This document shows, in pieces, positions 14,430 to 63,335 of a DNA stretch of 64,000 nt (within the stretch, counting starts at the first letter, position 1; every line of letters begins with the position of its first letter). A program made the translations under genes and the position numbers. This DNA comes from Deltaproteobacteria bacterium (GTDB taxonomy: Bacteria; Myxococcota_A; UBA9160; SZUA-336): NCBI GenBank assembly GCA_004356455.1, contig SMWZ01000147.1, positions 128 through 64,127 of the forward strand, given 5' to 3'. The notes under the pieces were generated by a model that was not told where the DNA came from, did not search any database, and saw only the letters and a list, made by a program, of their open reading frames with translations.

Positions 14430-14466
14430 CGCCCAAGGCCCAAAGGCAAGCCCCACTAACGCCATC

Positions 14467-14540
14467 CAAGGCACGCACGAAGTCGCGTGCCGCGCGCGCA
14501 GGCCGGCTTGCCGGCCGATAACGCGCTAGTAACGCGCTAG
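14467..14540 (-). repeat. single inverted copy of the double-hairpin intergenic element (same family as 62622-62790), with an 11-bp TAACGCGCTAG duplication
   Basis: The reverse complement reads TAGCGCGTTA-TC-GGCCGG-CAAG-CCGGCC-TGCGCGCGC-GGCACGC(G)AC-TTC-GTGCGTGCC. Order and linkers match the 64-bp unit at 62.6 kb, but both stems carry different, compensating sequences. Confidence 0.75.
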
Positions 14541-14730
14541 GAGTAAGCCCCGGCGATGAGCACCATCAGGGCCAGGTAGGTCGCAACCAGGAGCAGGCTG
14601 CGGCGCAGCGACGGACGCCTCGTGTCTGAATCTACTGCTTCCCTCATGTCCCCCCCTTCGGCTAACACCCACTGGAGCTATAGCGCGTTGTGATGGAATG
14701 CGCCCTATCGGAGGCGAGAAAGTTGTCGCG

Positions 14731-56631: not shown

Positions 56632-57492
56632 GTGGCGGGGATCGCGCTGCTCGTAGCTTGCGTGCCCCTGGGCCTGGTCCCGACACCGGCCCGCGCGACC
56701 TGGTCTATCGTGGCCGTGGATGGCGCGACCGAAGAGGTCGGCATCGCGGCGGCGTCGTGTATCGGGGGCGTCGAGGTGACGGGCGGCCTCGCGCCCGGCC
56801 GGGGCGTGATCGCGGCTCAGGCGCTCAGCAACCCCAGCGCCCGCGACCAGGCCGTGGAGCTGCTCGCCGCTGGCGCCAGTCCGCGCGAGGTGATCGAGCA
56901 GGTCACCACAGTTGAGTTCGATCCCGAGTCGTTTCGGTCGGGCCCGAAGCTGCGGCAATACGGTGTGGCGGCGCTCGGGTTCGAGGCTGCGGCGGCCAGC
57001 TTCACGGGCTCGTGGGTCCTCGGCTGGAGCGGCAGCGCGCATGGCCAAGGGGTAGCTGTCCAAGGCAACCTGCTGTACGGGGCAACGGTCGTCGAGGCTA
57101 CGCTCGCGACCTTCGAAGCGATCGCCCCCGGGACCGCCGCCACACTAAGCGATCGCTTGATGGCCGCGCTCGAGGCCGGCGCGGCCCAGGGCGGAGACAA
57201 GAGGTGCGCGAAGGAGCTATCCGCGCTGTCTGCCTTCATCGCGGTGGCGCGGCCCGGAGATGATGCCCGCCATCCGTATCTGCGGATCGTGGCTCCCTAC
57301 GCCGGCGAGACGGACACCAGCCCGTGGACCTTCTTGCGCCAGCTTTTGTGGCCGCAACGAGGTGACCTGAGTGAGAACCCGGTTACGCGGCTGCGAAAGG
57401 AGTACGACCGCTGGCGTGAGCGCAACCCGCGCGCTCAGGAGCGCGGCGTGGTTCCGAAGGCTTCGCGCGCGCGCGAACGCGCCCAGCCGTAG
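56632..57492 (+). CDS. exported DUF1028-family (Ntn-hydrolase-like) protein
   Basis: TWSIVAVDGATEEVGIAAASC resembles the TFSIVA N-terminus of DUF1028, preceded by a hydrophobic leader. The start is uncertain (GTG 56632, or ATG 56581 inside the upstream gene). Confidence 0.6.
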   Translation: MAGIALLVACVPLGLVPTPARATWSIVAVDGATEEVGIAAASCIGGVEVTGGLAPGRGVIAAQALSNPSARDQAVELLAAGASPREVIEQVTTVEFDPESFRSGPKLRQYGVAALGFEAAAASFTGSWVLGWSGSAHGQGVAVQGNLLYGATVVEATLATFEAIAPGTAATLSDRLMAALEAGAAQGGDKRCAKELSALSAFIAVARPGDDARHPYLRIVAPYAGETDTSPWTFLRQLLWPQRGDLSENPVTRLRKEYDRWRERNPRAQERGVVPKASRARERAQP

Positions 57493-60676: not shown

Positions 60677-62620
60677 ATGAGGCTCCCATTCGCGCTCGCA
60701 GCGGCAGCGCTGATCGGCTGCTCGGGCCCCTCGCCGATCGAGTACGAAGGTCCGGTGGCCGGCTGGCCCGAGTACGGCGCGGCCAAGGGGGGCGGCCACT
60801 ACTCGCCCCTCACTCAGATCCATAAGGACAACGTCGGGGAGCTCGAGATCGCGTGGGTCTATCACACCGGCGATTACGATGACGGCTCCGCCAGCCTGGC
60901 GCCAAGTTCTTTCCAAAACACGCCGATTCTCGTGGACGACACGCTTTACCTGTGTACGCCCTTCAACCGTGTGATTGCGCTCGACGCCGACACCGGTCGC
61001 GAACGCTGGAGCTTCGACCCCAAGCTGGACACGTCCCAGCGCTACCTGCAGGTGTGCCGTGGCGTCACGGCCTGGGACGATCCTCGGCGCAAGCCCGGGC
61101 GCAGCTGTGCACGGCGCATCTTCATGGGCACGCTCGACGCACGTCTGATCGCGTTGGACGCGCACAGCGGGGAGCCGTGTGAAGACTTCGGCCAGAAGGG
61201 CGAGGTCGACCTGGGCCAGGGCATTGGGCGCGTGGACCCGGGGGAGTATGGCGTCACCTCGCCGCCGGTGGTGATCCGCGACCTGGTGGTGACAGGCAGC
61301 TACGTGCTCGACAACCGCCGCAGCGATGCGCCCGCCGGGGTGGTACGCGCCTACGACGCGCGCAGCGGCGAGCTGCGCTGGAGCTGGAACCCCGTCCCGC
61401 CGGGGCAGAGCCAGATGGAGTTCGATCCAGCCACCGGCGAGCGTATCTACCGCAAAGGCACCGCGAACGTATGGTCGATAATGTCGGTCGATCCAGAGCG
61501 GGGCCTCATCTTTGCTCCGACCGGAAACACCGCGCCCGACTACTACGGCGGCGATCGCCGCGGCTTCGACTACTACTCGAGCTCGGTGGTGGCCCTGCAT
61601 GCCTCGAACGGCCAGGTGATCTGGCGCTTCAAGACCGTGAACCACGACGTGTGGGACTACGACGTGCCGGCGCAGCCCACACTCTTTGATTTTCCGCATG
61701 GCCGGGGGACGATCCCGGCGCTGGTGCAGGTGACCAAGATGGGACACCTCTTCGTCCTCAACCGCGAGAGCGGCCGGCCACTCTTTCCGGTGGAGGAGCG
61801 CGCGGTGCCGATGGGCGGCGTGCCGGGTGAGGTGCTCGCGCCGACTCAGCCCTTCCCCACGCGCCCCCCTCCCCTCCACCCGGGCGAGCCGCTCACCCCC
61901 GATGACGCCTGGGGCTTCACGTTCTGGGATCGGGGAAAGTGCCGCGAGTGGATTGCCTCCCTACGCTCGGAGGGCATCTTTACCCCACCTTCGCTGCAGG
62001 GCTCGATCCACTATCCGGGCAGCTCGGGCGGGATGAATTGGGGTGGCCCCGCCGTCGACCCGGAGCGACATATCCTCGTCGTGAACACGACCCGCGTAGC
62101 CAACCACATCCGGCTGGTTCCTCGGAAGGCGGTCACGCCCGAGCAGGCCGCGGCCCAGTACGGCTTCGAGCCCGCACTCGGGAGTCCTTACGGCCTCGAG
62201 CGCCTCCCGCTGCTGTCGCCGCTGGGCGCGCCCTGTAACCGGCCGCCCTGGGGTACACTCGTGGGTGTGGACCTCGCGCGCGGCGAGATCCTGTGGGACG
62301 TGCCGTTCGGCACCACGCGCGACATGGCGCCGTTTCCGATCTGGCGCAAGCTCGGCGTGCCCAACATCGGCGGCCCCATCGTGACGGCCAGTGGGCTCGT
62401 CTTCATCGGGGCCACCACGGACGACTTCCTGCGCGCTTTCGACAGCGAGACAGGCGAGGAGCTCTGGAGGGGACGGCTCCCGGGCGGCGGCCAGGCCACG
62501 CCCATGACCTACCGCACCAGCCGCGAGACCAAGCAGTTCGTCGTGATCGCTGCGGGCGGACACGGGCTCATGCGTACGACGGGCGGCGACGCGCTGGTGG
62601 CCTTTAGCCTGCCTGAGTAG
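60677..62620 (+). CDS. PQQ-dependent dehydrogenase (glucose/quinate/shikimate family) lipoprotein
   Basis: Lipobox LIGCSG and eight-bladed propeller motifs (NVWSIMSVD, YSSSVVALHASNGQVIWRFKTVNHDVWDYD, GGMNWGG). Confidence 0.88.
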   Translation: MRLPFALAAAALIGCSGPSPIEYEGPVAGWPEYGAAKGGGHYSPLTQIHKDNVGELEIAWVYHTGDYDDGSASLAPSSFQNTPILVDDTLYLCTPFNRVIALDADTGRERWSFDPKLDTSQRYLQVCRGVTAWDDPRRKPGRSCARRIFMGTLDARLIALDAHSGEPCEDFGQKGEVDLGQGIGRVDPGEYGVTSPPVVIRDLVVTGSYVLDNRRSDAPAGVVRAYDARSGELRWSWNPVPPGQSQMEFDPATGERIYRKGTANVWSIMSVDPERGLIFAPTGNTAPDYYGGDRRGFDYYSSSVVALHASNGQVIWRFKTVNHDVWDYDVPAQPTLFDFPHGRGTIPALVQVTKMGHLFVLNRESGRPLFPVEERAVPMGGVPGEVLAPTQPFPTRPPPLHPGEPLTPDDAWGFTFWDRGKCREWIASLRSEGIFTPPSLQGSIHYPGSSGGMNWGGPAVDPERHILVVNTTRVANHIRLVPRKAVTPEQAAAQYGFEPALGSPYGLERLPLLSPLGAPCNRPPWGTLVGVDLARGEILWDVPFGTTRDMAPFPIWRKLGVPNIGGPIVTASGLVFIGATTDDFLRAFDSETGEELWRGRLPGGGQATPMTYRTSRETKQFVVIAAGGHGLMRTTGGDALVAFSLPE

Positions 62621-62621
62621 C

Positions 62622-62790
62622 TAGCGCGTTAGCGGCGAGCACAGCTCGCCTGCGCGCACGGCGCCGGACTTCGTCGGCGCCTCTGTAGCGCGTTAGCGGC
62701 GAGCACAGCTCGTCTGCGCGCACGGCGCCGGACTTCGTCGGCGCCTCTGTAGCGCGTTAGCGGCGAGAAAAGCTCGCCTGCGCGCATGGC
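62622..62790 (+). repeat. tandem array of a 64-bp double-hairpin element: 62622-62685, 62686-62749 (1 mismatch), and a partial diverged third copy from 62750
   Basis: The unit is TAGCGCGTTA-GC-GGCGAG-CACAG-CTCGCC-TGCGCGCAC-GGCGCCG(G)AC-TTC-GTCGGCGCC-TCTG. It starts 1 nt after the PQQ-dehydrogenase stop, and the third copy forms the 3' end of ORF 62757-63335. Confidence 0.9.
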
Positions 62791-63335
62791 GCTTGTGCCT
62801 CCTTATCGGGTGCCCGTGACGACGAGAACACGCTGAGCGAAGCAGCGGTCCCCCAGTGCTCCCCTATCGCAGCGGCCATCTCTCCCAGGGCCTCGAGCTC
62901 AATACCGATCGGATAATCGGGTGCTCGCGTCATGCGGGCGAAAGCACCGAAGGCCACGAGCGCCGTGATGCGGTCGGGATGGGTGGTGGCAAACAATGCG
63001 CTCAGGGGTCCACCCTCGGAGATGCCGAAGAGCACGGCTTGCTCACTACCCGTTGCGCTCATGACAGCGTGGATGTCGTCCATCCGCGGCTCATAGCTGG
63101 GCGCACCGGCGACCCAATCCGAGAGGCCCGTGCCGCGCTTATCGAAGGTGATCACGCGGGAGAAGGACGCGAGCCTCTGAATGAAGCGTGAGTAGCCCGG
63201 CAGCTCATGGAAGAACTCGACGTGAGATACCAAGCCTGGGACGACGATGAGGTCCCGCGGGTCCTCCCCCACAACCTGGTACGCGATGCTCAGCTCGCCG
63301 CTCTTTGCGTACCGGGTCGTGGGCAGCTCCTGCAT
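62757..63335 (-). CDS. alpha/beta hydrolase, apparently C-terminally truncated (possible pseudogene)
   Basis: TRYAKSGELSIAYQVVG, FDKRGTGLSD and GISEGG (nucleophile elbow). Only 192 aa, ending inside the 64-bp repeat, with no Asp/His part of the fold. GGAAGGAG RBS. Confidence 0.6.
   Translation of the reverse strand: MQELPTTRYAKSGELSIAYQVVGEDPRDLIVVPGLVSHVEFFHELPGYSRFIQRLASFSRVITFDKRGTGLSDWVAGAPSYEPRMDDIHAVMSATGSEQAVLFGISEGGPLSALFATTHPDRITALVAFGAFARMTRAPDYPIGIELEALGEMAAAIGEHWGTAASLSVFSSSRAPDKEAQAPCAQASFSRR

Follow-up and report, generated by a model that had tools for sequence, protein, structure and literature searches.

What is the G+C-rich sequence at positions 14467-14540 of the window (the whole stretch of 64,000 nucleotides analysed here), and how is it related to a sequence of similar layout, in the opposite orientation, at 62622-62685? 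Reading of the letters alone had suggested that the two are distant copies of one element whose structure is under selection, as either an RNA or a REP-like DNA hairpin. The 74-bp stretch is one of about 150 copies in this uncultured myxobacterium, and these copies make up an undescribed REP/BIME-like family of DNA repeats, not a locus-specific RNA or terminator. It is probable, in our judgement, that they are dispersed non-coding repeats of the REP/BIME kind, with units of about 64 nt, and are spread by machinery reading folded DNA.

Anatomy of the repeat and of its two loci in the window

Direct reading of the minus strand from 14540 to 14467 gave TAGCGCGTTA-C-TAGCGCGTTA-TC-GGCCGGC-AA-GCCGGCC-TGCGCGC-GC-GGCACGC-G-AC-TTC-GT-GCGTGCC-TTGG, and that of the plus strand from 62622 to 62685 gave TAGCGCGTTA-GC-GGCGAGC-ACA-GCTCGCC-TGCGCGC-AC-GGCGCCG-G-AC-TTC-GT-CGGCGCC-TCTG. 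As had been claimed, the reverse complement of 14467-14540 matches 62622-62685 module for module, and both stems differ between the loci yet stay complementary: P2 is GGCCGGC/GCCGGCC at 14.5 kb and GGCGAGC/GCTCGCC at 62.6 kb, and the P3 arms are also swapped with pairing kept (GGCACGC/GCGTGCC versus GGCGCCG/CGGCGCC). A repeat copy is indeed present at 14467-14540, but its extent had to be corrected, as the actual unit occupies 14466-14530 and the segment 14530-14540 is a duplicated head. A covariance model (R1) built from 56 distinct full units, the copy in question not among them, matched 14466-14530 on the minus strand with 85.7 bits and E = 2.8e-16, with 21 of 21 pairs formed.

This complete type-A unit (14466..14530, minus strand) begins with ACT-A (14530-14527), followed by the P1 5' arm GCGCG (14526-14522), the internal loop TTATC (14521-14517), the P2 5' arm GGCCGGC (14516-14510), the P2 loop AA (14509-14508), the P2 3' arm GCCGGCC (14507-14501), TG on the 3' side of the internal loop (14500-14499) and the P1 3' arm CGCGC (14498-14494). 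After the spacer GC (14493-14492) comes P3, composed of the 5' arm GGCACGC (14491-14485), a bulged G (14484), AC (14483-14482), the loop TTC (14481-14479), GT (14478-14477) and the 3' arm GCGTGCC (14476-14470), and the tail TTGG (14469-14466) closes the unit. The general order is 5'-ACT-(A/G), P1 (5 bp), (G/T)TA(T/G)C, P2 (7 bp with a 2-4-nt loop), TG and the P1 3' arm, then 1-2 nt, P3 (7 bp, one bulged base, 2 bp and a TTC loop) and the tail TYRG. P1 encloses P2; the internal loop between them is asymmetric, a 5' strand (G/T)TA(T/G)C facing a 3' strand TG. Module 1 has 36 nt and P3 has 22 nt; both are G+C-rich imperfect palindromes folding as predicted, and the minimum-energy fold reproduces P1, P2 and P3.

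The outer segments had been taken for conserved single-stranded linkers. This is not correct: GCGCG and CGCGC are the two arms of an outer helix, P1, and this helix shows covariation between subfamilies. As the outer linkers pair with each other, the unit consists of three helices (P1, P2 and P3). P1 was counted at sites with the unpaired linker motifs and a paired hairpin 1, leaving the outer 5-mers free. With P1 pairing not required, the arms were found as GCGCG/CGCGC (65), GCCGG/CCGGC (24), CCCGG/CCGGG (17) and GCGGG/CCCGC (15), and the cross-combinations about once each. In alignment A1, 97.8% of cells were paired, both sides had changed in 11 of 21 pairs and covariation was 0.40 versus 0.13 after shuffling and at most 0.09 in slid registers, while in A2, from other genomes, 97.9% of cells were paired with double changes in 17 of 21 pairs; both alignments were selected for, or fitted to, structure, and the less biased checks are smaller. 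Matches found with nhmmer by sequence only (163 distinct) were 95% Watson-Crick, and P3 anchored on invariant positions only was 92% Watson-Crick at variable positions versus 48% with the arms shuffled, with 12 different stem cores. New variants of every helix were present in other genomes, for example P1 GCGAG/CTCGC and P2 GGGCGGC/GCCGCCC. Even the GAC-TTC-GTC core, which had been thought conserved, covaries from AC/GT to GC/GC in 8 of 56 copies. The P3 bulge is T rather than G in two relatives with 81% Ndk identity (L092 and L093) and at loci of the only congener, for example GGCGCGC-T-AC TTC GT GCGCGCC; judged from these variants, the bulge is conserved as a bulge and not as a specific base.

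P3 always followed module 1 (56/56) and was never alone. Of the 153 copies of module 1, 62 continue into type A, 63 into type B and 9 into type C; the remaining 19 have other or nested arrangements. Type B (e.g. C193:5376-5460) has ACTTCGCTCGGCTGCGCCTCGCTGCGCG, a small covarying hairpin and TTGC, and contains two direct repeats of the segment made of the P2 3' arm, TG and P1'. Type C (e.g. C224:16081-16010) is GGGCGACTC-TTGA-GTCGCCC hairpin with CTAG on both sides. Units were arranged in head-to-tail arrays or nested within the hairpin of other units, and adjacent heads were direct in 94 cases and inverted in 16.

The 14.5-kb copy is accompanied by pieces of other events. The 11-nt duplicated head at 14530..14540 (minus strand), TAGCGCGTTAC then TAGCGCGTTATC, was recognised by the tandem repeat finder with a period of 11 and 2.0 copies. 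The same head duplication, TAGCGCGTTAC then TAGCGCG(T/G)TA..., occurs at four loci (14519-14540 of the window, and C134:28358, C193:5365 and C166:10845 of the genome), and in front of many other units stand CTAG and, 3-8 nt further on, TAC. The duplication may have been left by successive insertions 3' of ...TAC, or may mark a hotspot of slippage. The gap between the type-A unit and the ndk stop codon is occupied by a decayed remnant of an older type-B element tail (14430..14465, minus strand; ...GTGGGGCTTGC...), as comparison with relatives revealed: three relatives with 94% Ndk identity (L086, L087 and L089) have an intact type-B element ending ...GGGGCTTGC at the corresponding junction. The window's 14.5-kb copy is nested in this remnant.

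The TAG at 14537-14539, assigned before to a candidate small ORF, lies inside the duplicated head and is the stop codon of a gene conserved in relatives. Alignment of relatives placed this small membrane-protein gene of 36 aa (MREAVDSDTRRPSLRRSLLLVATYLALMVLIAGAYS) at 14537..14647 on the minus strand, between ndk and an AXE1-like hydrolase. It is conserved, with 36-37 aa, throughout L074-L093, whose Ndk identity goes as low as 81%; it has one predicted transmembrane helix and no Pfam match. From its conservation it looks like a real, unannotated small membrane protein. Lineages with the element end this gene in TAG and the empty lineage ends it in TAA; wherever present in the ndk spacers of relatives, the element supplies this stop codon.

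The 62.6-kb locus is a tandem array with a 64-bp period and 2.7 copies (tandem repeat finder). Type-A unit 1 (62622..62685, plus strand; 87.8 bits with R1 for 62620-62685) is followed by type-A unit 2 (62686..62749, plus strand; R1 match C13:62811-62876), with a single base change, C to T, by which a P2 G-C pair becomes G-T. A partial unit 3 (62750..62818, plus strand; 44.8 bits with R1) has an intact module 1 (P1 and P2) and a degenerate P3. The two stop codons reported for this locus agree with the array: the TAG of the PQQ-dehydrogenase gene (62618-62620) abuts the element, unit 1 beginning 1 nt after it, and the TAA of the ORF at 62757-63335 (minus strand) is, according to the ORF list, the TTA (62757-62759) of the third head. 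This ORF encodes an alpha/beta-hydrolase fold with Pfam positions 3-103 of 245, which is the N-terminal half only, and the repeat array codes for its final 11 residues and for its stop. In relatives, homologues lie in open frames of 446-609 aa, and the hydrolase gene appears to be truncated at the array. All of the 15 public contigs with an identical PQQ-dehydrogenase end at most 40 nt past its stop codon, in the first unit, which means that the array breaks assemblies. A 52-aa ORF at 62629-62787 (minus strand), wholly inside the array, is almost certainly spurious. Elsewhere in the window, R1 gave a weak, degenerate match at 56816-56880 (minus strand; 23.3 bits, E = 0.004), which may be a decayed copy or chance.

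Abundance, gene context and ends

The genome of this organism (G000) is a 3.40-Mb assembly of 236 contigs with 65.9% G+C and 89.8% completeness. A genome-wide search for further copies found the 10-mer TAGCGCGTTA 58 times, 167 nhmmer matches to a profile of module 1 (first 36 nt), and at least 127 copies with R1. A short chance match of G+C-rich palindromes, the alternative named in the sequence-only reading, does not account for these numbers. R1 also found 55 copies in the only congener (G001); within the taxonomic family, other genera had 90 (G004), 75, 37 and 23 (G006) copies, and nine genomes had zero. In the Myxococcota class, 36 of 225 genomes and 24 of 90 genera had R1 matches, several other families included. 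Public contigs with the motif were mostly labelled as uncultured Myxococcales, Deltaproteobacteria or Myxococcota MAGs, with one labelled Gammaproteobacteria and one Planctomycetia. No description of such repeats in Myxococcota was found by full-text search of the literature.

Genes were predicted with a simple codon-usage caller, which gave 83% of the genome as coding, and 6 of 149 copies lay inside gene calls. More than 100 contigs carry copies, scattered between housekeeping genes. The 86 element-bearing spacers included 45 convergent, 32 tandem and 9 divergent ones, a convergent share of 52% versus 17% expected, and both loci of the window lie between convergent genes as had been stated. 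Between tandem genes, 19 elements were sense and 12 antisense. At the 5' end the junction is regular, xAC|TAG. In 16 cases the stop codon of the upstream gene is the TAG of the element itself, in 9 further cases a stop codon plus C (TGAC, TAAC or TAGC) precedes this TAG, and in many copies the 5' end is 0-12 nt from a co-oriented stop codon. Orientation with respect to GC skew was unbiased (30 versus 37 elements), although genes were biased (663 versus 438). In the search for an autonomous copy, genes bracketed by two elements were only housekeeping ones, such as lexA, asnS, mreB and folE.

A structured RNA module, which would be co-transcribed with the upstream gene and whose hairpins would shield the mRNA 3' end, terminate transcription or hold up terminating ribosomes, would also be placed at gene 3' ends, and the excess of convergent spacers (45/86), the short distance to co-oriented stops, the predicted fold with P1, P2 and P3 and the conserved unpaired bases are in agreement with it. 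REPs near stop codons are known to affect translation (discussed in PMC12306157), and stalling of terminating ribosomes is reported for E. coli REPs within 15 nt of a stop codon. Against the RNA module, G.U pairs, used as a strand test, showed no excess (36 versus 55 A.C), and in tandem gene pairs the sense orientation was not much more frequent than the antisense one (19 versus 12). No T-tract was present on either strand of either locus, so the bidirectional terminator suggested before has no sequence support, and the scan for intrinsic terminators found no terminator-like site on any of these strands. Comparison with Rfam 15 gave no gathering-level match in the window and only chance-level ones (E at least 0.58) at the loci. 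Of the two possibilities first proposed, REP-like DNA fits best, and RNA is weakened by the pair counts and by the orientation of the copies.

The left end (TAGCGCGTTATC...) and the right end (...GTCGGCGCC TYRG) have no mutual similarity, and comparison of ends in type-A solo units found no terminal inverted repeats. The 5' end of the 33 solo units is ACT(A/G)G, with AC at -2/-1 in 28-30 of them, and the 3' end is GCC-TYRG. No TA duplication was found at solo units; A stands at +6 in 7 of 33, so at most 7 have TA after the tail. GTAG was seen only at internal array junctions. These ends bear on the explanation that the repeat is an IS630/Tc1-type MITE, which inserts into the TA of CTAG and rebuilds TAG stops. 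The 5' junction is usually A-CTAG, a minority of copies end ...GCC CTAG, nesting is common, and some of the 12 convergent head pairs resemble terminal inverted repeats (C86:33601-33730, C11:28365-28487), all as such a MITE would have it. But the type-A unit is without terminal inverted repeats and has the P3 hairpin plus TYRG as its right end, CTAG follows just 3 of 56 units, other subfamilies start with ACTGG or ACTAC and not with CTAG, and heads are mainly direct (94 versus 16 inverted). The IS630 transposase domain DDE_3 (PF13358) was absent from the 89.8% complete assembly of G000 and from all high-copy genomes of the family; it was present only in genomes with 0-13 copies and was anti-correlated with copy number. 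We regard a MITE origin as very unlikely.

Turnover at orthologous sites

The ndk spacer was compared among relatives. Strains with 99-100% identical Ndk have exactly the arrangement of the window. The group with 94% Ndk identity has the same head and junction, but a type-B tail replaces P3. A relative with 88% identity (L091) has no element here, and its ndk TAG is separated from the small gene's TAA by 11 nt. The group with 81% identity carries a type-A unit of independent origin, oriented the other way, 6 nt past ndk. Two contigs with identical Ndk protein showed 7 differences in 620 nt, all within one 25-nt patch, which converts P2 from GGCGAGC/GCTCGCC to GGCCGGC/GCCGGCC. This swap looks like a gene-conversion footprint rather than stepwise compensation.

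Similar turnover was observed around mreB, which in G000 (C52:26573-27967) is flanked by family members on both sides, its TAG stop being the head of a type-B element. Upstream of mreB, one unit or two tandem units were found among 99% strains, and a 95% relative has a fully compensated, different P3 at the same site. The mreB-yceG spacer was found filled, empty with an unrelated 74-nt spacer, with type B (+), or with type A (-), the last two in strains with identical MreB. Many public mreB contigs barely exceed the gene length, which is consistent with assembly breaks at both repeats. At two further sites the element is present in the congener and absent in G000; the flanks there are only about 78% identical, by which presence or absence is clear and the junctions are not. 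In the "empty" relatives, the spacer sequence is unrelated and is not the filled site minus the element, so replacement or recombination could explain some differences as well as insertion.

In the short spacers that follow gene 3' ends, the repeat behaves as a DNA element whose copies appear and disappear, invert, give way to others or multiply. Arrays vary in copy number between near-identical strains, and stem variants move between copies as short patches. The covariation had been taken as the sign of a structure under selection. It is true that compensatory change keeps a conserved structure, but some of the changes arrive as whole copied patches. A locus-specific RNA function would not tolerate strand flips, module swaps and absence at orthologous sites in close relatives, and together with the evidence from strand and terminator analysis we consider the RNA module unlikely.

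Likeness to known repeats and possible mode of spread

With the REP/BIME/REPIN elements of Enterobacteria and Pseudomonas, the Myxococcota repeat shares short G+C-rich imperfect palindromes in more than 100 copies, extragenic and mostly after genes, whose stems stay complementary while the sequence varies. Both form mosaics or clusters with other motifs and break short-read assemblies. The two differ in that a REP/BIME is one palindrome, whereas the Myxococcota unit has an outer helix around a hairpin and then a second, bulged hairpin. The tag is GTAG in REPs and ACT(A/G)G here, and REP doublets are inverted, whereas our repeats are head-to-tail or nested, and no RAYT was found.

The last point is important for the idea of a classical REP, in which a RAYT (Y1 HUH transposase) would act on single-stranded hairpins and so move the repeat. 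Module 1 is much like an E. coli REP in being an imperfect palindrome (36 nt) whose internal loop is asymmetric and which bears a (C/G)TAG tag at its 5' end, and the high-copy, extragenic and mosaic occurrence, with structure kept and sequence variable, would also be expected from such a system. However, Y1_Tnp/RAYT (PF01797) was absent from G000, whose assembly is 89.8% complete, and none was found in G001, G004 and G006 either (at least 127, 55, 90 and 23 copies in these four genomes). Among 32 relatives, several Y1 genes were in genomes with 0-2 copies and did not track copy number. The RAYT/IS200-like transposase that the sequence-only reading had proposed to look for was not found in G000, and its presence in relatives does not follow copy number. 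The tag is ACT(A/G)G and not GTAG, dimers are direct and not inverted, and no orientation bias against GC skew exists although genes are biased. RAYT mobilisation is, in view of this, extremely unlikely.

Readings of the repeat as attC, CGTC-REP or Helitron/IS91-like were dropped, the defining motifs being missing from the end sequences. Integron attC sites are also conserved in structure and variable in sequence, with paired boxes, an unpaired internal loop and an extrahelical base. But the attC core pair RYYYAAC/GTTRRRY is missing here; the GTTATC of the repeat is unpaired and has no inverse core. The minimum size of attC sites is about 57 nt; module 1, with 36 nt, is shorter, and the copies are scattered on more than 100 contigs and not in cassette arrays. 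IS630-type MITEs such as RUP of Streptococcus pneumoniae are likewise small, non-coding, located at gene ends with CTAG/TAG and often nested; the type-A unit differs from them in lacking terminal inverted repeats, its solo copies showed no TA duplication, and the high-copy genomes have no IS630 transposase. The CGTC-tagged REPs are a super-family apparently without a dedicated transposase, with heterogeneous stems and loops and short unpaired tails, as in the present repeat. They have a terminal CGTC tag, 8-9-bp stems starting with A-T pairs, 4-5-nt loops and CCA tails (PMC3733652), and mostly form head-to-head dimers (Di Nocera, De Gregorio & Rocco 2013, PMC3733652). None of these tag, stem, loop, tail and dimer features is found in the Myxococcota repeat, which differs in tags, stems and dimer organisation from both the GTAG and the CGTC super-families (PMC3733652), and Myxococcota are not listed in that study.

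As to the mode of spread, the propagation machinery would recognise the three stems and a few conserved unpaired bases, namely those of the asymmetric internal loop, the bulge and the triloop. Its target would most likely be a folded single strand of either polarity. Recognition of the folded strand would account for stems that stay complementary as their sequence drifts. A RAYT or an IS630 transposase does not appear to be the spreading enzyme. Where the element is transcribed, it would put stable hairpins at mRNA 3' ends, which is most likely a side effect and not the reason for its existence. A more specific proposal is that the three-helix unit is the substrate of an undescribed hairpin-recognising enzyme or host factor, neither RAYT nor DDE transposase, which spreads and homogenises the elements class-wide. 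We offer it tentatively, as possible but rather unlikely; if true, it would mean a new mobilisation system for REP-like DNA, possibly homing to xAC|TAG gene ends.

For the uncultured Myxococcota class, these results give a defined covariance model and anatomy of an abundant repeat, which explains the poor assembly of these MAGs. Annotation is affected as well: genes take their stop codons from the repeat, spurious ORFs arise within it, and it lies at the end of a gene that appears truncated. "Compensatory" stem changes can arrive as conversion patches, and it means that caution is needed when structured RNAs are called from covariation in repeats. The REP/BIME concept gains, outside Proteobacteria, a RAYT-less family with three stems.
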